From positions 37,756-101,755 of the forward strand of contig JBPOIT010000011.1 in assembly GCA_052034235.1 (NCBI GenBank): a stretch of 64,000 bases of DNA, given 5' to 3'. Below, piece after piece: positions 23,514-31,992 of this stretch. The notes under the pieces are model-generated. The model was not told where the DNA came from. It ran no database searches and saw nothing but the letters and a program-made list of their open reading frames with translations. Origin of the DNA: Candidatus Levyibacteriota bacterium. GTDB lineage: Bacteria; Patescibacteriota; Microgenomatia; Levybacterales; UBA12049. Position 1 is the first letter of the stretch. Every line of letters starts with the position of its first letter. Position numbers and translations under genes: made by a program.

Positions 23514-25004
23514 TTACTTTTTTTTAGATTTATTTTTCGTTTTCTTTTTAAGTTTAAGAGACGGATTAAATATCAAGGTAAACGTTGTTCCTGCACCTTC
23601 TTTACTTATTACTTCTATTGATCCTTTAAATTCTTTTTCTACAATATCTTTACAAAGCGCGAGTCCTATACCCGTTCCTTTTTCAAAACTTTTCGTGGTA
23701 AAAAGAGGATCATAAATTTTAGGAATAATACTTGCAGGAATACCAGAACCCCAATCCTGTATTGAGATAATCACAGATCCTTTACTTTTGTTCATTGTGA
23801 TTTTAATTTTATTATTTTCATGATCTATTTTATCGTAGGAATCTATACCATTTGAAATAATATTTGTGACAAGCTGATTGAACTTTAAAGGATTTCCAAA
23901 GAGTTTCACCTCACTTTGAGACTCATATATGATTTTTATATCCTCATGTGATGCTTTATACGTCAACATTTGAATCACTTGTTTTATTTCATCATTCAGT
24001 GAAAATTCCTGACTGATATCTTGGGTTTGGATTTGTTTCCTGGCTGCTCTTAAATAGCTTTCAATTCTTTCAGTTCCTATTTGTGCGCGATTCAAAGACG
24101 AATAAAGTTTTTCCTGAATTTGTATATGCTCGCTGTTCCTTCGTGCTTGTTCTAAATTTAAGGAGATAACATTTAATGGAGCCACCAATTCATGAAATAA
24201 ACCTGAAGATAATCTACCAAATTCTGCAAAGCGATAAAGCTGCATCAGTTTTTCAACCTGAACTTTTTTCAATTCCTGGGTCCTCTCTGCTACCATGACT
24301 TCTAACTGATCACGCTGTTTTTTCAAAGCAAGTTCTGACGACCGTGCACGTCTTAAAGCCTTTTCCATTTCACGATTATACAGCCATGAAATGAGTGCGA
24401 TTATAAAAAGAATGACTGTATACACAGTAACATCCGCTATAGTCGCTGGTAATTGTGTCCATGAAGTATTAAACGTAATAATGTGGTTCTCATAAGCAAA
24501 TAACAAGACTAATAATGTTAAGGATATAAGAATCGTAGCAAAAAGTGCAAATGATGAACTAATGAGAATTCCACCCATAATAATTACTAGGACATATGTA
24601 AGTAACGCAGAGGGAATATCTATTCCCCAGGTATAACTGGTATAAGTCGCTCCTAGGAAAAAAAGCGTTAGTAGAAAATAAGCAGCATATCGGTATTTGC
24701 CTTTATGCGAGAAATAATAATTAAGAAGTAATACAAAAAAAATACAGGAAGGAATTATTGATGATTCACCAACGAAAGCACTCCCTGTATTAGAATCTAC
24801 AACATCCGTAATAAGAGCAGATATAACTGCAACAAAGGTCAAACCTAATGCTGAGGTAAGAAGGATATTCAAAATGAATTTTCTTCTTGCCACATCCTTA
24901 TTATTTGATTTCGACTCAATAAATACTTTATATAATTTCTTTAATTTATAAAGTACGACGTGAGCTATATCAGATGATGTAAATGTATTCTTTATTATTG
25001 CCAT
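23514..25004 (-). CDS. Sensor histidine kinase, intramembrane-sensing type (6 TM, no large extracytoplasmic domain)
   Basis: 496 aa. N-terminal polytopic membrane region. H-box at LSSGLFHELVAPLNVISLNLE. HATPase motifs at QDWGSGIP and GTGIGLALCKDIVEK. Confidence 0.9.
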   Translation of the reverse strand: MAIIKNTFTSSDIAHVVLYKLKKLYKVFIESKSNNKDVARRKFILNILLTSALGLTFVAVISALITDVVDSNTGSAFVGESSIIPSCIFFVLLLNYYFSHKGKYRYAAYFLLTLFFLGATYTSYTWGIDIPSALLTYVLVIIMGGILISSSFALFATILISLTLLVLLFAYENHIITFNTSWTQLPATIADVTVYTVILFIIALISWLYNREMEKALRRARSSELALKKQRDQLEVMVAERTQELKKVQVEKLMQLYRFAEFGRLSSGLFHELVAPLNVISLNLEQARRNSEHIQIQEKLYSSLNRAQIGTERIESYLRAARKQIQTQDISQEFSLNDEIKQVIQMLTYKASHEDIKIIYESQSEVKLFGNPLKFNQLVTNIISNGIDSYDKIDHENNKIKITMNKSKGSVIISIQDWGSGIPASIIPKIYDPLFTTKSFEKGTGIGLALCKDIVEKEFKGSIEVISKEGAGTTFTLIFNPSLKLKKKTKNKSKKK

Positions 25005-25102
25005 GGTCTTGCGACAACTGGAGTTACCAACGCAACTAATGTCAACGCTGTAACACTTCTGGCAGCTTTACTTGTTAGGGTTTTCTTTAATATTTCTTTC
25101 AT
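24995..25102 (-). CDS. Micro-ORF (35 aa) with a signal-peptide-like or TM peptide, between the response regulator and the kinase
   Basis: The sequence aggaggtgataaaATG gives a strong Shine-Dalgarno. Translation MKEILKKTLTSKAARSVTALTLVALVTPVVARPWQ*. Its stop overlaps the kinase start by about 10 nt. Confidence 0.4.
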   Translation of the reverse strand: MKEILKKTLTSKAARSVTALTLVALVTPVVARPWQ

Positions 25103-25146
25103 TTTATCACCTCCTTTCTATTATACTATTTGTTCTAGAATAAGTG

Positions 25147-25815
25147 TTAAGCTTCTAATTTGTAACCCATACCGTGAACTGTTTTTATAAGTTTTTTGTC
25201 AAAAGCTTTATCAATGTGATCTCGGAGGTATTTAATGTGAACATCAATAGTGTTCGTTGAGGGCTCCTCGACTGTACTCCATACATGATCCAGAATCATT
25301 TCTCTCGTAATAATTCTTCCAACATTCCTAGCAAGGTATTCAAGTAAATAAAACTCTTTCTTTCTCAGTGAAATTCTTTTTCCCTCTCTTGATACCCTCT
25401 GATTATTTAAATCAATTTCAAGATCAGCGATCGAAATTATATTTGACTGAAGTGCTTGAGCAGGTCTTCTAAGCAAAGCACGTATCCGCGCTAATAATTC
25501 GTCCATATGAAAGGGTTTTGTGAGGTAATCATCAGCACCGGCGTTGAGTGCATCCACTTTTTTTGCAACAGCATCTTCTCCAGTTAACATTAATACAGGG
25601 ATAGTTTTCCCACCTTCTCTAATAATTCTACAAACTTCCAACCCACTCATGCCTGGCAGATTAAAATCAACAATAATGATGTCATATTCATTAACAAATG
25701 CTGCATATTCTCCTTCTTCCCCAGATAGAGCTATATCAACAACATAATTTTCTTCTAACTCTTCTTTAAGAGTCTGGGCTAAAACATTATCATCTTCTAT
25801 CAACAATATTTTCAT
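25147..25815 (-). CDS. OmpR/PhoB-family response regulator (receiver plus winged-helix DNA-binding domain)
   Basis: MKILLIEDD...IIIVDFNLPGMSGLEVC...DDYLTKPFHMDELLARIRALLRR, then the C-terminal winged helix (DVHIKYLRDHID...TVHGMGYKL). Confidence 0.95.
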   Translation of the reverse strand: MKILLIEDDNVLAQTLKEELEENYVVDIALSGEEGEYAAFVNEYDIIIVDFNLPGMSGLEVCRIIREGGKTIPVLMLTGEDAVAKKVDALNAGADDYLTKPFHMDELLARIRALLRRPAQALQSNIISIADLEIDLNNQRVSREGKRISLRKKEFYLLEYLARNVGRIITREMILDHVWSTVEEPSTNTIDVHIKYLRDHIDKAFDKKLIKTVHGMGYKLEA

Positions 25816-26120: not shown

Positions 26121-27155
26121 TTATAGTCCTGAAAGGTCACGAATTTCTTTTTCGCTAAAAGGAGTTATCTTACTTGTAAGTACCGTATTTAATTTTGTGA
26201 TCACAGCATTTGCTATAAATCCATTCACAACCGTGCCTGTATGAACACCATCTTCAAGATAAAAATTATTAGGATTATTGCTTAACATTACTCGCTCAAT
26301 CTGAACTCCGTCAACCGTAAACTGACCACTATCATCCTTTCTGAATAACTCTTTATAGACAGCATTTATATCCACCGTCATCAGATTTTCTTCCTGAGCA
26401 AACTTGTCAATTTCTGCATTCGTATCATTTATAACTTCTGTTACAAAAATTCGCTGTTGTGGCAACGGAAAAGCAACCTTCACTCCTAGATGATTGCCCC
26501 AATCAGGAATTTTGATAAGTACAATTCTGACATCCCCTGCATCTTTGAGCGTGTATACTATTGTTTTAATATCTGCAAGGATATGGTTCTCAATGCTTTT
26601 TTTTGCTGAGTTAGTAAGGTTACCGCTATAAATAGCTTCGTAATGTTCATGTGGCATATAAGGCGAAAAATCAAGCGCCCCTATAAAAACAACGACGACA
26701 TTAACTTTACCTTCTTTTATTTGTTGTGCAGCTCCTATATGCTGCCCGCTTTCTATCACACTATTCGAAGTCGCACCTGTTCTTGCCCAGTTATATTCAT
26801 AACCGTCTCGTCTAGGCTCTTCACGCCTCCCCCACTCACCGACGTTTACATTTCTATATTTGGATAACAGTTCAACCCAGTTATATGTCGTAGAAGCATA
26901 ATTACTCCCCCGCCAGTCATCAGCACGGTATTCGTCCGATTGACTGTCTCCAAGTACCGCCATGCCCTTCATAGTGAGCGGTGCGGGGGTCGCTGACGGA
27001 ATGAGGTATTGAAGTCTATCACTCACCAAACCAGGATTCTGAAATGTGAAAATCGTAGCAGCTAATGAACCTAAGCTAATCACTGCCATCAAAAAAATGC
27101 CGAGAATTTTTATGACTCTTATAACGTGATTAATGTTTTTATTATTTTTCTTCAC
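26121..27155 (-). CDS. Membrane-anchored SGNH/GDSL-family hydrolase (esterase/lipase-like)
   Basis: N-terminal TM, then VLGDSQSD (GDSxxD block I) and a C-terminal DGVHTG (DxxH block V). Confidence 0.7.
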   Translation of the reverse strand: MKKNNKNINHVIRVIKILGIFLMAVISLGSLAATIFTFQNPGLVSDRLQYLIPSATPAPLTMKGMAVLGDSQSDEYRADDWRGSNYASTTYNWVELLSKYRNVNVGEWGRREEPRRDGYEYNWARTGATSNSVIESGQHIGAAQQIKEGKVNVVVVFIGALDFSPYMPHEHYEAIYSGNLTNSAKKSIENHILADIKTIVYTLKDAGDVRIVLIKIPDWGNHLGVKVAFPLPQQRIFVTEVINDTNAEIDKFAQEENLMTVDINAVYKELFRKDDSGQFTVDGVQIERVMLSNNPNNFYLEDGVHTGTVVNGFIANAVITKLNTVLTSKITPFSEKEIRDLSGL

Positions 27156-27528: not shown

Positions 27529-27530
27529 CA

Positions 27531-27560
27531 AAAAGGCGGGTGTTACCCCGCCTTTTTAAA
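27531..27560. terminator. Bidirectional rho-independent terminator (aaaaggcgggtgttaccccgccttttt)
   Basis: GC-rich 6-bp stem flanked by an A-run and a T-run. It sits between the convergent TfoX (+) and YcnI-like (-) genes. Confidence 0.8.
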
Positions 27561-27584: not shown

Positions 27585-28223
27585 CTATTTCTTCTTTCGT
27601 GAACTCAGAAAGAGAGCTCCACCGGATAGCGCAAGTGCAACAACACTGAGTGCTGTTGGCAGACTTGCATCTGTCGAGGCTGGTTTTTCCGTTTCGGAAT
27701 GACTGCCTTCAGCTAAAGCGAGATCATTAACGATCTTCGTTTCAGAATATGGCTTTACATCGTGATCGTCATGATCCTGGCTCGGTGCCTGATCCCAAGC
27801 AACCACTTCTCCATCCGAATAGGTTTGATATGCCTTCCATTGCAATGTTGTTTCTTCAGCAGGTACTTGTGCACTGAATAGAAATTCATCACGCTGACCA
27901 GCAGGAATAGATCCGCCCGTCCAGATAATCTCTGTAACAACTGCTGCTTCTCCTTCTCCAGATTTTTTGACTTCAATCGTCCATCCCGGTTTTACATTGG
28001 GAGTCACATACTGCAGCCCGCTAGGAATAACAAGACGCAACGCAACTGTAGGTACATCTTTTTCATTAGGAACCCCTGTCGTAAATGTTTGGAATGCAGC
28101 TGAACCAACTTGATTTGGTTTTACTGTGACATGCGCTGAAACAAAGGCCGCACTCATTAAAAAGACGCCAGTCAATGCAACACTTACTACTGTTTTTGTT
28201 ATATTCTTTTTTTGATTTTTCAT
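27585..28223 (-). CDS. YcnI-like DUF1775 copper-binding protein with a C-terminal TM anchor
   Basis: Signal peptide, then AHVTVKPNQVGSAAFQTFTTGVPNE...VIPSGLQYVTPNVKPGW, the DUF1775 pattern with His as the first mature residue. C-terminal hydrophobic anchor plus KKK. Confidence 0.7.
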   Translation of the reverse strand: MKNQKKNITKTVVSVALTGVFLMSAAFVSAHVTVKPNQVGSAAFQTFTTGVPNEKDVPTVALRLVIPSGLQYVTPNVKPGWTIEVKKSGEGEAAVVTEIIWTGGSIPAGQRDEFLFSAQVPAEETTLQWKAYQTYSDGEVVAWDQAPSQDHDDHDVKPYSETKIVNDLALAEGSHSETEKPASTDASLPTALSVVALALSGGALFLSSRKKK

Positions 28224-28317
28224 TTATATACACACCTCCTTTCTTTTCCTCATGTGATATGAGTTTTAGACTCGATAAGTTGTTACTTACCGGTGAAAAC
28301 CTTAGAGCTTTTGGGAA

Positions 28318-28677
28318 TTACACAATTTCTGGTGGAGACCGAGGAGAATGATGAAGAGTAACGAAAGGAATATATCTTTGCGGCTGGCATGTTAACTTAT
28401 ATCCATTTAATAAATCACTTTGTGAAAAATCTAAAATATTTGTAATAACCGCAAATTGAGGTAAACAACATGCATGCACTTGTACGTGAGATATCGTTTC
28501 ATCATGAGCCATAAAAAGCATCATCACCGGCACATGATGAAAAGCTATAAAGACGAGCAAGACGCATGAAAGCAAGGCGTGTTGCGTATGAAGTATGTTT
28601 ATTTTATCGCGGAAAAGCCAAAGAAGTAAAACAGCAGGTACAGCAGAAAAAATGATGTGATAAACGTGTTCGTGCAT
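28318..28677 (-). CDS. His-rich small membrane protein (possible metal-handling)
   Basis: 119 aa, about 3 TM. HHVPVMMLFMAHDETISHVQVHACC. Context only. Confidence 0.45.
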   Translation of the reverse strand: MHEHVYHIIFSAVPAVLLLWLFRDKINILHTQHALLSCVLLVFIAFHHVPVMMLFMAHDETISHVQVHACCLPQFAVITNILDFSQSDLLNGYKLTCQPQRYIPFVTLHHSPRSPPEIV

Positions 28678-28680
28678 GTA

Positions 28681-29229
28681 TTATCGTTTTGCCTTTTTTG
28701 TGTGTTTTTTGTAGAGTACCAATGAGACAAGTGAAAAACCAATAATTCCCACACTAAAATGAGGCAAATGATCTAAGAACCAGTTACTCTTCTTTTCTGT
28801 CACGGTATCACTGTTCCGTTCCACTCGCTGGTTAAAAGAAAGCGTAAAATCATCAAATGCTCCAGCAGACAAAGGCTTACCTGTAATTTTTATAACGTAC
28901 ACGCCTCGTTTGGGGAATGCATAATAAACGCTGGCATTTGTAAGACTCGGCTGTGAATTATTTTGAAACAATGGCTGGCTGTAAAGTTCTTGGCCGTTAC
29001 TTGTAACTGAAAATGTACATTCACATAACTTGGGATCAAAAGTATTTTTTTTATCTTTGAATTCAAAATAGAAACTACTTTCCTCCCCGACGACTGGATC
29101 GTCTTCTGGTTGAATATGCATAACTGCACCAATCGATTCATCAATTTTAAGGACATGCGCTAAATTTGATTGTGGGAATGCCAAGAAAACTGCTAAGAAG
29201 AAAACTATATGAAGAATTATTCTTTTCAT
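28681..29229 (-). CDS. Secreted, C-terminally anchored protein. A stand-alone copy of the HxHP-type domain found duplicated in the neighbouring large membrane protein
   Basis: Signal peptide ending in AHV. Contains AVMHIQPEDDP and AFPKRGVYVIKITGKP, similar to FNHIHPDASED and FPKAGEYHLYLDF of ORF 29249..30796. Confidence 0.55.
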   Translation of the reverse strand: MKRIILHIVFFLAVFLAFPQSNLAHVLKIDESIGAVMHIQPEDDPVVGEESSFYFEFKDKKNTFDPKLCECTFSVTSNGQELYSQPLFQNNSQPSLTNASVYYAFPKRGVYVIKITGKPLSAGAFDDFTLSFNQRVERNSDTVTEKKSNWFLDHLPHFSVGIIGFSLVSLVLYKKHTKKAKR

Positions 29230-29248
29230 TACTTTGCCTTATTGTGAA

Positions 29249-30796
29249 TTATTTTACCGTAACTGTAAAGTCTGCTGTAAACAGTTTTGCATCAGGATTA
29301 AACTGAGCAAAGACTCGGTATATTCCTGGTTTTATCGGGCCGTAGAGACCGAGCGGCATAAATTCAACAGTTGGGCCGCCATTGGCGTTTGGTTCTGGTG
29401 GTGTTATATTTGTCGGATGCACATGCAAATATTCAAATGTCTCCTGATTAATCATCACCAAATGGCCATAGGCAGCTAAATATGGTTTAAGCGTCGTTAC
29501 TGGTTTGCCAGATTTATCTTGAATAGTAAATGTCATCAGTTGTTTACCTATTGAGAGTTGCGACGCGAGAAGCGGCTTGGGAGCCTGCAAACTGACTTGG
29601 TAATCGCCAAATGCTTTTTTAAATGATTCATCAGGCACACTCGTTGCTTTAATGGCAGTCCCCTTCGAACCAACGGTTACTGTGAAAGCCATTTGTTGTT
29701 CAATTGCTCCCAATGGTTGAAAATCAAGATAAAGATGATATTCCCCTGCTTTTGGAAATTGCGTCGTTATCACAAAACCATCTTCACTTGCATCAGGATG
29801 AATGTGATTAAAATATGTCAGTGAACTATCTACGATAATTAAATGTACTGGTTTATCATAAAGTGTTTTGAAATAACGCACAGGATTGCCGGAACTTGCA
29901 TCAAAAACTTTAAACTGCAATTGTGTCTTTTGATTTGGTTTGATAGTGTCTTCGTATAGAAAACTTGTTGTGAAGCGTTTTGTTTTGTCACCATCCATTC
30001 CTGGCAGTTTGGGGGTATTTTGGGTAGTGTTCCCCTGTTGAGCCTCTTTCGCTAGTTGAATATGCTGACTGTGGACACTAAAAGGAGATTCTTTCTGCGG
30101 CATCACAACAGATGTTATATAAAAAGTAAGAACAGAAGCCACTACTATGATTGTTACCATACCAAACTTAGGGATTGATGGAAATTTATTATATAAAAAG
30201 GAATCAAATCGTATCGCTTCAAGTATAACTAAAAATGTTAATGCCCCAAAGAAAATCTGTGGGATGAATTCAGAGAAGGACCTGAAATGAGTTCCAAGCA
30301 TAAGTGCATGGATAACAATAAACAAACCTGCAAAATAGATAATTTGCTCCCACACTTTTGCTCTAAAAAAACGAAACCTCTTAACCAGAATCTCTATAGA
30401 CAGAAGCGAAACTATCGTAAGAATGGCTAACGCACAAAAACCAAGCACAGCGTTGAGGACATAACGATCGCTCAAAAAGAAAAGGCCCTCCCAGCCACCT
30501 AATAACCCGTAAAAAGCGATAGCTGCATGAATGGCTGCAAAATACCATGCTACGGCAATCGCGGGTTTATAAATACTTTTGTAAATGTTAAGCCAAGGAA
30601 GTGTGGGAAACGAATAATTGAGAGGTCTATATAGTAAAGCTATGTATAAACTTGTCAGTGCACTTAATGCATAGACTTGCGCAAGTCTGATAAGAAAAAC
30701 TGATCCATCTGAATAAACTAGCTGCAACAAACCAAAAACCAAGGCTGAATAAAGTACACAAGAGAAGAGCAGAGACAGTTTGCTTTTGTTGAGCAT
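29249..30796 (-). CDS. Polytopic membrane protein (ferric-reductase/CopD-like His-containing TM core) with two C-terminal extracytoplasmic HxHP-motif domains
   Basis: 515 aa. About 7 TM, with His in helices (AAIHAAIAFY, IVIHALMLGTHF). Duplicated ~110-aa domains carry FNHIHP / YLHVHP and FPKAGEY / IKPGIYRVF. Confidence 0.6.
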   Translation of the reverse strand: MLNKSKLSLLFSCVLYSALVFGLLQLVYSDGSVFLIRLAQVYALSALTSLYIALLYRPLNYSFPTLPWLNIYKSIYKPAIAVAWYFAAIHAAIAFYGLLGGWEGLFFLSDRYVLNAVLGFCALAILTIVSLLSIEILVKRFRFFRAKVWEQIIYFAGLFIVIHALMLGTHFRSFSEFIPQIFFGALTFLVILEAIRFDSFLYNKFPSIPKFGMVTIIVVASVLTFYITSVVMPQKESPFSVHSQHIQLAKEAQQGNTTQNTPKLPGMDGDKTKRFTTSFLYEDTIKPNQKTQLQFKVFDASSGNPVRYFKTLYDKPVHLIIVDSSLTYFNHIHPDASEDGFVITTQFPKAGEYHLYLDFQPLGAIEQQMAFTVTVGSKGTAIKATSVPDESFKKAFGDYQVSLQAPKPLLASQLSIGKQLMTFTIQDKSGKPVTTLKPYLAAYGHLVMINQETFEYLHVHPTNITPPEPNANGGPTVEFMPLGLYGPIKPGIYRVFAQFNPDAKLFTADFTVTVK

Positions 30797-30840: not shown

Positions 30841-31992
30841 ATGGTGAAAAGAGTCATATATCTCATCCTTGTCCTTGTATTCATACTGCTGCTGATAATT
30901 GTACTGATACCGTGGTTGAACAGGACAAAAAATGCCGAGGCGTTGCCAGCACCAACCGGATCAATAATTACAAAAGACAAAATCTCTGCAGATCTACCGA
31001 GAGTTTCAGTCGTTGCATCAGGACTTGAAGTGCCGTGGGCTTTGGCCTTTCTACCGGATAATAGTTTACTTATAACCGAGCGCCCGGGAAAAGTTCGCTT
31101 GATAACTAGTGACGGTAAATTGCTCGCTGATCCCTTATTAAGCTTACCAGTCGTTCAAAAGATACAAGGTGAAGGTGGACTCCATGGAATTGTCCCTCAT
31201 CCGAATTTCACTGAAAACAACTATATATACCTCTATTATACGTATGAAAACACGGGGACAGGTTCACTTAATAGGGTCTCACGTTTTACTTTTGAAAAGA
31301 ATAAACTCGTTGATGAAACCACTATCGTAGACAAAATACCAGGAGCACTTTTTCATGATGGTGGAAGAATAAAATTTGGGCCTGATGATTTCCTCTATAT
31401 TACAACCGGTGATGCTCAAGAGCCATCATTTGCTCAAGACAAAAATTCACTTGCCGGAAAAATTCTTCGTGTCACTGACGACGGCCGCCCTGCACCTGAT
31501 AATCCTTTTAAGACTATGATTTATTCATACGGACACCGCAATCCCCAAGGGATCGCATGGGATGACACAAACAAACTTTGGCAGACAGAGCACGGAAGAT
31601 CAAATCCTTCCGGATACGATGAAGTCAACCTCATTCTCGCTGGCAAAAATTATGGCTGGCCTGAAATTGAAGGCGATGAAACAAAAACCGATATGGAAAC
31701 ACCGAAAAGCCAATCAGGACAGTCATTAGCATGGGCTCCTGGAGGCGCGACGTTTATAAATAATTCATTCTTTTTTACTGGACTTCGGGGACAAACACTC
31801 TATGAAGCAATAATTCAGAAAGATAACGTTGTCTCTTTTAAAGAGCATTTCGCTGGAGAATATGGTCGATTAAGAGACGTCATAACAGGTCCAGACGGTA
31901 TGTTGTATATGACGACAAGTAACAGAGACGGCAGGGGTATACCGGCAGGAAACGACGACAAAATTCTGAGAATTAACCCAGATAAATTATAG
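30841..31992 (+). CDS. PQQ-dependent sugar dehydrogenase (soluble glucose/sorbosone dehydrogenase family), membrane-anchored
   Basis: N-terminal TM. GLEVPWALAFLPDNSLLITERPGKV, GHRNPQGIAWD and the beta-propeller pattern typical of the YliI/Asd family. Confidence 0.85.
   Translation: MVKRVIYLILVLVFILLLIIVLIPWLNRTKNAEALPAPTGSIITKDKISADLPRVSVVASGLEVPWALAFLPDNSLLITERPGKVRLITSDGKLLADPLLSLPVVQKIQGEGGLHGIVPHPNFTENNYIYLYYTYENTGTGSLNRVSRFTFEKNKLVDETTIVDKIPGALFHDGGRIKFGPDDFLYITTGDAQEPSFAQDKNSLAGKILRVTDDGRPAPDNPFKTMIYSYGHRNPQGIAWDDTNKLWQTEHGRSNPSGYDEVNLILAGKNYGWPEIEGDETKTDMETPKSQSGQSLAWAPGGATFINNSFFFTGLRGQTLYEAIIQKDNVVSFKEHFAGEYGRLRDVITGPDGMLYMTTSNRDGRGIPAGNDDKILRINPDKL

Follow-up and report, generated by a model that had tools for sequence, protein, structure and literature searches.

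A conserved operon of Patescibacteria that appears to reduce and relay copper at the cell surface

On the minus strand of the 64-kb stretch of DNA analysed here (the window), four adjacent genes form an operon that appears to be a previously undescribed bacterial route for reducing and relaying copper at the cell surface. The reduction of Cu(II) outside the bacterial cytoplasm is an open question, and the fusion of a STEAP-like ferric-reductase domain (FRD) with YtkA-like domains, encoded beside a YcnI gene, makes a concrete and testable candidate. The sole established bacterial cupric reductase cited in PMC13344008 and PMC13038864 is CcoG, which faces the cytoplasm. According to the same papers, the PepSY_TM protein CrpH was recently proposed as a periplasmic cupric reductase, and Firmicutes are said to have no candidate at all. 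Literature searches turned up no description of an operon of this kind.

Gene 1 (29249-30796; coordinates of all operon features refer to the minus strand) encodes a 515-aa FRD membrane protein with two fused YtkA-like ectodomains. It is followed by gene 2 (P182, 28681-29229), for a 182-aa protein with a signal peptide, a β-sandwich ectodomain starting at His25 and a C-terminal TM anchor, by gene 3 (P119, 28318-28677), for a 119-aa protein with two TM helices, and by gene 4 (27585-28223), for a 212-aa YcnI/DUF1775 protein with a signal peptide and a C-terminal TM anchor. The gaps between the genes are 19, 3 and 94 nt, and a strong terminator-like hairpin with a T-run (27529-27558, 12-bp stem, 6 GC pairs) lies directly 3' of gene 4 and closes the operon. 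Judged from the common strand, these gaps and the terminator, the four genes are an operon, predicted to be co-transcribed. An earlier sequence-only reading had already reported four consecutive minus-strand genes at this place, and the ORF coordinates match exactly. No copper regulator, cuproprotein or other copper gene was found in the remainder of the window, and the operon itself contains no recognisable permease (CopD, Ctr, MFS). A two-component system downstream, at 23514-25815, was rejected as a partner of the operon: one gene for a GDSL lipase and another on the opposite strand intervene, and the association is not conserved elsewhere. The adjoining GSDH gene was also rejected as an electron source: it recurs in locus L073 only, and is absent from 64 GTDB loci.

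Gene order was counted in 42 species-representative loci having at least 2.2 kb of downstream DNA. The distant high-GC loci L060-L062 were left out of the interpretation, as naive ORF calling is unreliable there. In the 42 loci, the order was invariably FRD, P182, (P119), YcnI. P182 was present in all but one of them (41/42), immediately downstream of gene 1, and the YcnI gene in 36. P119 was found in 20 loci, in seven of them as a C-terminal fusion to P182. A gene order repeated in dozens of species-level genomes goes far beyond what chance would produce. The operon is conserved across Patescibacteria, some genomes having two copies, and PKD-FRD fusions tie in the usual fifth gene as well. 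Genome-reduced Patescibacteria thus retain a copper system of four to five genes. Of about 60 loci, only one encodes a dedicated electron donor beside the operon; in L007, the FRD gene has an FNR-like gene directly adjacent to it.

The membrane core of gene 1 (residues 1-235, 30092-30796) has seven predicted TM helices and is followed by two β-sandwich domains, in agreement with the former description of a His-bearing 7-TM core plus two ectodomains in a 515-aa protein. The positive-inside distribution of K and R suggests that the N-terminus is inside and the C-terminus outside. Two candidate haem ligands, His90 (30527-30529) and His163 (30308-30310), are invariant in 120 of 120 sequences, and His170 is nearly so. 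In a profile alignment, H90 and H163 fell on the His residues conserved in TM3 and TM5 of STEAP1/2. As a signature of the YedZ/STEAP branch, TM3 and TM5 provide haem-ligating His, and an Arg stands in place of the first His of TM3 (PMC3591440). Gene 1 shows this His/Arg signature, with K77 at the Arg position, 13 residues upstream of H90 (R in 95 and K in 9 of the 120 sequences). The core has the six helices of the FRD fold, and its fold matches FRD proteins. The window protein has no match to PF01794 in Pfam even at E≤10; precomputed matches assign this family to about 94 of the 120 close homologues. Scanned directly against Pfam and NCBIfam, the products of genes 1 to 3 and the isolated domains had no match at all, even at E≤10. 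Taken together, the core is, on homology grounds, a YedZ/STEAP-type ferric-reductase domain with one invariant His pair near the outer leaflet and a putative haem. The label "ferric-reductase/CopD-like" given to it before is partly supported. The STEAP-like metalloreductase fold stands, whereas CopD (PF05425) has no match in Pfam or NCBIfam, nor among the precomputed domains of the 120 homologues, and the fold is that of an FRD. A juxtamembrane His helix (residues 241-253, VHSQHIQLAKEAQ, 30038-30076), recognised by conservation and of low pLDDT, has an invariant H242 and an H245 conserved in at least 90% of sequences; it may be a metal docking site beside the haem.

The two ectodomains of gene 1, D1 (residues 266-380, 29657-30001) and D2 (residues 386-515, 29252-29641), are predicted His-type YtkA-like β-sandwiches. 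Both carry the HxHP motif that had been noticed in them, as HIHP at residues 331-334 and HVHP at 458-461, and a third invariant His precedes each motif; the triads are H318/H331/H333 followed by P334 in D1, and H445/H458/H460 followed by P461 in D2. The FPKxGxY motif, also attributed to each domain, is present in D1 (FPKAGEY) but not in D2 (IKPGIY). D1 and D2 are mutually homologous (hhalign 96.6%, E 6e-10). Against an alignment of eight PF13115 proteins, D1 scored 97.0% (hhalign, E 9e-11, 108 columns) and D2 74% (E 2.7e-5), a value that is not decisive alone and stands beside the homology of D2 to D1. Neither domain matched PF13115 in Pfam, even at E≤10. Among 64 more distant tandem-domain proteins, 19 matched it at E<0.01, and in four of the five distant proteins inspected D1 was the part matched, in most cases with a score under the gathering threshold. 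The Met-rich M-P-x-M-x-x-M-P motif of the aligned PF13115 members is absent from D1 and D2. Its counterpart in D1 reads H-L-I-I-V ... F-x-H-I-H-P, of which only the last His aligns with a conserved His of the YtkA set. The HxHP domain, which the sequence-only reading could not name, is in the light of these profile comparisons a divergent His-type variant of the YtkA/CtaK-like family (PF13115), its invariant His triad probably replacing the Met-rich site.

With YtkA/CtaK, a CuA assembly factor of Bacillus, the window domains share the whole-domain profile homology found for D1, an extracytoplasmic and membrane-tethered position, and a genetic link to copper delivery. They differ from it in missing the Pfam threshold, in having H-x12-H-x-H-P where YtkA/CtaK has M-P-x-M-x-x-M-P ... 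H, and in always forming a tandem pair. The His-triad tandem domain forms some 4,000 clusters at 50% identity and extends to actinobacteria, acidobacteria and a haloarchaeon. In other proteins, this tandem is joined to the CopA Cu(I) ATPase (in a copZ-copA-csoR operon), to HMBD and to cupredoxin domains. Its D1D2 profile found no relative among PDB sequences.

The signal peptide of P182 ends in Ala-His, and a TM helix forms the C-terminus. Residues H25, H38, P41, D43, P45, C69 and C71 (a CxC motif) are invariant, and none of 63 homologues has a Pfam domain over the ectodomain. The top Foldseek match of the AF2 model (pLDDT 89) was PmoD (E 8.6e-4), with CrdA and LPMOs lower down the list; the P182 profile found no relative among PDB sequences. 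P182 had been taken for a stand-alone anchored copy of the HxHP domain with a mature N-terminal His. The anchor and the His were confirmed, but the domain copy was not, since P182 reads MHIQP, has no HxHP, and gave hhalign values of 2.3% and 0.2% against the repeated domains (20% against YtkA). An assignment to CopC (PF04234) failed too: a search of 64 members at E≤1 gave no CopC match, the 50 best Foldseek matches do not include CopC, and the N-terminal His is the only feature in common. P182 belongs to a separate unnamed family of anchored β-sandwiches, whose invariant residues include the N-terminal His, another His, an Asp and a CxC motif. It resembles anglerase, DUF6702, DUF4198, CopC, PmoD and LPMO-type proteins in the cleavage of the signal before an invariant His, in the Ig-like β-sandwich and in the tether, although no relation to any of these was found at the sequence level. 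What sets it apart from them is its own invariant set (H1, H14, D19 and CxC in mature-protein numbering) and its fusion partner, P119, instead of HupE/UreJ or CopD.

P119 fits its first description as a small His/Cys-rich membrane protein. It has an N-terminal HEHxxH, His47/48 in TM2, an H-x-C70-C71-x-P-Q motif and a C-terminal RSPP, and in the family alignment of 23 members the CC pair, located after TM2, is invariant. No Pfam or NCBIfam match was found, in Pfam even at E≤10. For its 2-TM layout and CC pair, we presume a likeness to the small vicinal-Cys metal importers MerT/MerF, in function only. With the His-triad tandem domain and the N-terminal-His family of P182, the CC-motif family of P119 brings to three the families not described in Pfam.

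The product of gene 4 matches PF07987 (DUF1775) with 91.5 bits for a cut-off of 25 (E 8.9e-26), and the solved YcnI structure (PDB 7me6) with E 2e-17, as expected from its prior assignment to DUF1775 with an N-terminal copper-site His. H31, at the mature N-terminus, E54 and W143 align to His27, Glu50 and Trp137 of YcnI; 'AH', 'VP.E' and the W are at least 90% conserved in 42 orthologues. By alignment, gene 4 is a genuine YcnI with the full set of three residues of the mono-histidine-brace Cu(II) site, and it is predicted to bind Cu(II).

Homology, conservation and gene fusions point to a surface-exposed copper relay around a haem-b transmembrane cupric reductase, a reading to which we give an even chance. 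YcnI and P182 (N-terminal His, His14, Asp19) would capture extracellular Cu(II) and hand it to gene 1, at the His triads or the juxtamembrane His residues. The Cu(II) would be reduced by an electron supplied by a flavin or FNR-type donor in the cytoplasm and carried across the membrane through the haem. The resulting Cu(I) would then pass to thiol ligands (the CxC of P182, the CC of P119) for uptake or for the loading of surface cuproproteins. By analogy, such a layout may functionally mirror YcnI plus YcnJ of B. subtilis, with P182 corresponding to CopC, P119 to CopD, and a reductase added; it would also mirror the Fre/STEAP plus Ctr logic of eukaryotes. The fusion of the tandem domain to CopA suits the handling of exported copper equally well.

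A bolder version, which we put forward tentatively and regard as rather doubtful, is that of a first prokaryotic reductive copper-uptake pathway, a bacterial equivalent of Fre1/Ctr1 in yeast and STEAP/CTR1 in mammals. The haem-b cupric reductase, facing outward, would be permanently linked to His-type YtkA copper sites, receive Cu(II) from histidine-brace YcnI and P182, and give Cu(I) to an oligomeric channel of the 2-TM CC-motif protein P119, the whole being retained in genome-reduced, largely non-respiring Patescibacteria. The FRD-YtkA fusion supplies a biochemical hypothesis for the YtkA/CtaK fold: if reductive uptake is true, this widespread fold would serve to accept Cu(I) that has just been reduced or exported.

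Alternatively, the operon could serve copper resistance or sequestration, the His/Cys-rich anchored proteins buffering surface copper, the reductase setting the redox state of copper or thiols, and the YtkA-like domains taking outgoing Cu(I). The tandem domain is indeed found on the outer side of the CopA efflux ATPase in a CsoR-controlled operon, and has the copper resistance determinant CrdA as its best structural neighbour; five loci have CopA genes near the operon, and in L004 a pair of RND efflux genes points away from it divergently. However, detoxification usually oxidises Cu(I) to Cu(II), in the manner of multicopper oxidases, and not the reverse, and the conserved core has neither a copper sensor nor an efflux pump. 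In B. subtilis, moreover, YcnI and YtkA/CtaK act to acquire copper and to assemble cuproproteins (PMC12362106, PMC13344008). Resistance seems to us an unlikely function.

Two further proposals depart from copper. In the first, gene 1 would be a surface ferric reductase supplying Fe(II) for uptake, with β-sandwich proteins that handle iron like P19/FtrA or Tp34; the operon, however, has no permease of the Ftr1, EfeU or Feo kind. YcnI is, besides, experimentally defined as a Cu(II) protein, all of its ligands are kept in gene 4, and the tandem domain is fused to partners specific for copper (CopA with CopZ and CsoR, HMBD, cupredoxin), which makes a task in iron uptake quite improbable. An MsrQ-like electron conduit with a non-metal redox task, for instance the repair of oxidised surface proteins, and with β-sandwiches acting as protein-binding modules, would suit a core of the YedZ/MsrQ-STEAP branch, whose homologues are named 'YedYZ heme-binding membrane subunit' by JGI. 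It would also suit the PMSR gene about 5 kb from the operon in L004 and the NiSOD genes near it in seven loci. Yet the MsrP/YedY molybdoenzyme occurs in none of the loci, in each of the four proteins the invariant residues are of the kind that classically bind metals (N-terminal His, His triads, CC, CxC), and the domain fusions indicate copper; we consider this conduit very improbable.

Returning to the copper relay, the sequence-only reading had seen here a copper cluster recalling ycnJ-ycnI, and this comparison was strengthened by the YcnI ligands kept, by YtkA being the family of the YcnJ C-terminal domain, by the copper-protein fusions and by the STEAP-like core. Like B. subtilis ycnKJI, the window operon encodes a YcnI/DUF1775 protein with the His, Glu, Trp site and a C-terminal anchor, and an N-terminal-His β-sandwich that precedes a His-lined membrane protein and is in some cases fused with it; every part faces outward. 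Gene 1, like YcnJ (CopC-CopD-YtkA), is a polytopic membrane protein that bears a YtkA-like ectodomain. In contrast to YcnJ, this domain is duplicated, with a His triad for the Met-rich motif. The window operon has no CopC or CopD homology, its core being a haem reductase (FRD) and not CopD, and it differs from ycnKJI also by an extra CC-motif protein and by lacking a YcnK-type repressor. Compared with the STEAP metalloreductases and the short bacterial FRD proteins YedZ/MsrQ, gene 1 has a seventh TM helix that carries two copper-type β-sandwiches outside, and it sits in a copper-protein operon of Patescibacteria.

The ccoGHIS/fixGHIS clusters bring together the cupric reductase CcoG, an Ig-like protein of the FixH type and the copper ATPase CcoI. 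They are alike in function, combining a cupric reductase, a tethered Ig-like protein and a P1B ATPase, and these associations reappear here as gene fusions, of the FRD with the tandem domain and of CopA with the tandem domain. CcoG is an Fe-S protein that faces the cytoplasm (PMC13344008, PMC13038864), whereas gene 1 is an outward-facing FRD protein with a predicted haem. Cupredoxin genes are found near the operon in L007 and L008.

Four consecutive ORFs of 515, 182, 119 and 212 aa (genes 1 to 4) were found on the minus strand at 27585-30796, as the sequence-only reading had proposed, with intergenic gaps of 19, 3 and 94 nt and, 3′ of the last ORF, a GC-rich hairpin whose stem spans 12 bp, with a T-run (27529-27558). 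All four are annotated as genes in public assemblies, none with a name, and their close relatives are labelled Saccharimonadales, Levybacteria, Curtissbacteria and further Patescibacteria. The window has a GC content of about 38%; outside 27585-30796 it consists of housekeeping and sugar-metabolism genes, and no further copper genes were found there.

The product of gene 1 (29249-30796) had no match in Pfam or NCBIfam; of its 120 best homologues, about 94 carry the ferric reductase domain (FRD, PF01794). The family profile gave weak matches to STEAP1/2 and to SpNOX, a bacterial NOX (E 0.04-3), and in the profile alignment the invariant His90 and His163 coincide with the His residues that STEAPs conserve in TM3 and TM5. 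The core has a single conserved His pair, which sits in helices 3 and 5 near their outer ends. The residue 13 positions before His90 is Arg in 95 and Lys in 9 of 120 sequences, the window protein having Lys; Arg, replacing the first His, is a YedZ/STEAP signature implying one surface-proximal haem (PMC3591440). The weak STEAP/SpNOX match, the single His pair and the Arg/Lys signature together place the core with YedZ, STEAP1 and other short FRD proteins that lack a dehydrogenase part. The earlier label "ferric-reductase/CopD-like" holds in its first half; a CopD-like core was rejected. Judging from the K/R-rich loops 132-145 and 196-212 and the Lys-bearing N-terminus, this N-terminus would be cytoplasmic, and helix 7 would carry the C-terminal half to the outside. 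A conserved juxtamembrane helix, with His242 invariant and His245 nearly so, precedes the ectodomains.

These ectodomains, D1 (residues 266-380) and D2 (386-515), are predicted β-sandwiches. They are homologous (hhalign 96.6%, E 6e-10), confirming the repeat noted earlier, and each carries three invariant His in an H-x12-H-x-H-P pattern (H318/331/333 and H445/458/460). Against an alignment of eight bona fide PF13115 (YtkA-like) proteins, D1 gave a whole-domain match (probability 97.0%, E 9e-11) and D2 a weaker one (74%, E 2.7e-5). The His-bearing strands replace the Met-rich M-P-x-M-x-x-M-P stretch of YtkA, the final His alone being common to both. Because of the whole-domain match and this replacement, the HxHP domain, which the sequence-only reading could not name, belongs by these alignments to the YtkA/CtaK-like domains, as a His-type variant. 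In B. subtilis, CuA assembly is supported by YtkA, since renamed CtaK, and a YtkA domain forms the C-terminal end of the copper importer YcnJ (PMC13344008).

A profile of the D1-D2 tandem retrieved 3,970 clusters from 1.84 billion representative proteins, many of them secreted proteins or lipoproteins with His-rich N-termini; no related sequence was found in the PDB. Among 64 relatives with other architectures, YtkA-like (PF13115) matches occurred in 19, HMBD in 10, Cupredoxin_1 in 6, Ferric_reduct in 3, PKD in 2 and a complete P1B ATPase in 1, and the YtkA-like match was located on D1 in four of five relatives inspected. The ATPase fusion is a CopA from Paenibacillus antri, encoded in a canonical copZ-copA-csoR operon (locus L074, 5742-9285, VCIW01000008.1), where a ninth TM helix is followed by C-terminal tandem His-type YtkA-like domains, predicted extracellular; by this fusion, the tandem can act on the export side too. 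Tandems without an FRD core were also seen in the haloarchaeon Halalkalicoccus paucihalophilus (L070, 6833-7615) and in Streptomyces, other Actinomycetota and Acidobacteriota (L060-L068).

Gene 4 (27585-28223) encodes a textbook YcnI. It matched DUF1775 (PF07987, E 8.9e-26) and the YcnI structure 7me6 (E 2e-17), and its signal peptide terminates in SA|H, leaving His31 as the mature N-terminus, in agreement with the earlier assignment. His31, Glu54 and Trp143 align with YcnI His27, Glu50 and Trp137, which form a mono-histidine-brace Cu(II) site (PMC8424229). Across 42 orthologues taken from related loci, conservation at these sites is 90% or higher, and all 42 have a C-terminal TM anchor.

Gene 2 (28681-29229) encodes P182, whose 63 homologues include none with a Pfam domain over the ectodomain. 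All members have Ala-His at the signal peptide end and a C-terminal TM helix, and the residues that never vary are His25 (at the mature N-terminus), His38, Pro41, Asp43, Pro45, Cys69 and Cys71. The anchored protein with N-terminal His described earlier is thus recovered; its reading as a stand-alone HxHP copy is unsupported, since no relation to D1, D2 or YtkA was detectable (hhalign 2.3%, 0.2% and 20%). In Foldseek the predicted model, a β-sandwich (pLDDT 89), best matched the copper protein PmoD (E 8.6e-4), with CrdA and two LPMOs lower down amid generic PKD/FN3 matches. A recently published class of membrane-tethered, Ig-like metal binders with N-terminal His (PMC12537917) accommodates P182, though as a family of its own. 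A second anchored β-sandwich with mature N-terminal His (FAHGGIEK...) occurs at L007 11438-12451, adjoining a cupredoxin gene, and near 12.2-12.8 kb in L009 and L013; it shows a weak tblastn match to window 29020-29217, in the N-terminal part of P182 (E 0.002).

Gene 3 (28318-28677) encodes P119, the expected small His/Cys-rich membrane protein, with a conserved N-terminal E-H-x-x-H, two TM helices, a His in TM2, an invariant C-C inside H-x-C-C-x-P-Q and a C-terminal R-(S/A)-P-P. In seven loci P119 is fused to P182, whose TM anchor then substitutes for the first P119 helix, which suggests that the CC motif lies on the outer face.

One genome per GTDB species was scanned with D2 motifs as seed, giving 64 loci annotated by local HMMs; conservation of the partner genes is independent of this seeding. 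Where at least 2.2 kb lay beyond the FRD gene (42 loci), P182 followed it directly in 41, YcnI was present in 36 and P119 in 20, and the order FRD-P182-(P119)-YcnI was constant. A PKD-domain protein, absent from the window, comes next in 32 of 52 loci, and in P0285 and P0315 it is fused to the FRD protein N-terminus. Two MAGs with small genomes each carry two full copies, FRD-P182-P119-YcnI (CAYUPO01, L009 and L015; CAZWRN01, L013 and L022). Metal-related neighbours are occasional: NiSOD with a protease (7 loci), ZIP (6), CopA (5), Fur (4), cupredoxins (L007, L008) and, in L007 only, a gene for an FNR-like NAD-binding protein directly beside the FRD gene. Many MAGs with this Patescibacteria-type operon bear the title "uncultured Gammaproteobacteria bacterium", and others name Methylomirabilota or Sulfotelmatobacter; such titles are evidently unreliable and probably reflect default labelling or mis-binning.

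Together with YcnI, the operon encodes a predicted outward-delivering single-haem FRD covalently linked to two copper-type domains. The building blocks YcnI, FRD and YtkA-like are all of known kinds. No description of the His-triad tandem variant, the P182 and P119 families, the FRD-YtkA fusion or the whole operon was found in Pfam, NCBIfam or the searchable literature, and current reviews of bacterial copper trafficking recognise one cupric reductase, CcoG, and tentatively a second, CrpH. The layout parallels YcnI plus YcnJ, a likeness already noticed, with P182-P119 at the place of CopC-CopD and the reductase additional here.

The invariant residues of P182 and P119 are classic copper ligands: for Cu(II) an N-terminal His, a His and an Asp, and for Cu(I) Cys pairs. 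We give an even chance to our preferred reading, a reductive copper relay, in which YcnI and P182 would capture Cu(II), the gene 1 His sites would reduce it with electrons coming via the haem, and the resulting Cu(I) would pass to the Cys motifs; it may serve uptake, loading of surface cuproproteins or surface detoxification. That the same proteins confer copper resistance or sequester the metal seems rather unlikely, a role with iron instead of copper is more doubtful again, and an MsrQ-like, non-metal role appears very improbable.

Divergent from the FRD gene, 44 nt from its start codon, lies a GSDH/PQQ-type sugar dehydrogenase gene with an N-terminal membrane anchor (30841-31992, plus strand, Pfam E 2.7e-85); this adjacency recurs in a distant PKD-FRD locus (L073) and in none of the 64 GTDB loci. 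Downstream of the operon, minus-strand genes occupy 23514-25815 and 26121-27155. The first interval encodes an OmpR-type response regulator plus a histidine kinase whose sensor region has multiple TM helices; between this pair and the operon stand a GDSL-like lipase gene and a TfoX_N gene on the opposite strand, and other loci gave no sign that the pair is associated with the copper genes. Elsewhere, NiSOD and an S26-type maturation protease lie within a few kb of the operon (e.g. L008/L042, L039, L052), and the ZIP transporters and Fur-family regulators are equally close in their loci. Directly 5′ of the FRD gene, a cytoplasmic protein of only about 90 aa, starting MCYNCGC and without a Pfam family, is encoded at L007 5002-5298, L030 6708-6989, L046 4628-4894, L010 6807-6968 and four more loci, not in the window; it may act as a partner in metal binding or regulation. 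In one lineage a HupE/UreJ metal permease gene lies between the FRD gene and P182 (L006/L017, 7690-8190, minus strand), a permease family also found fused to the published N-terminal-His "anglerase" domains.
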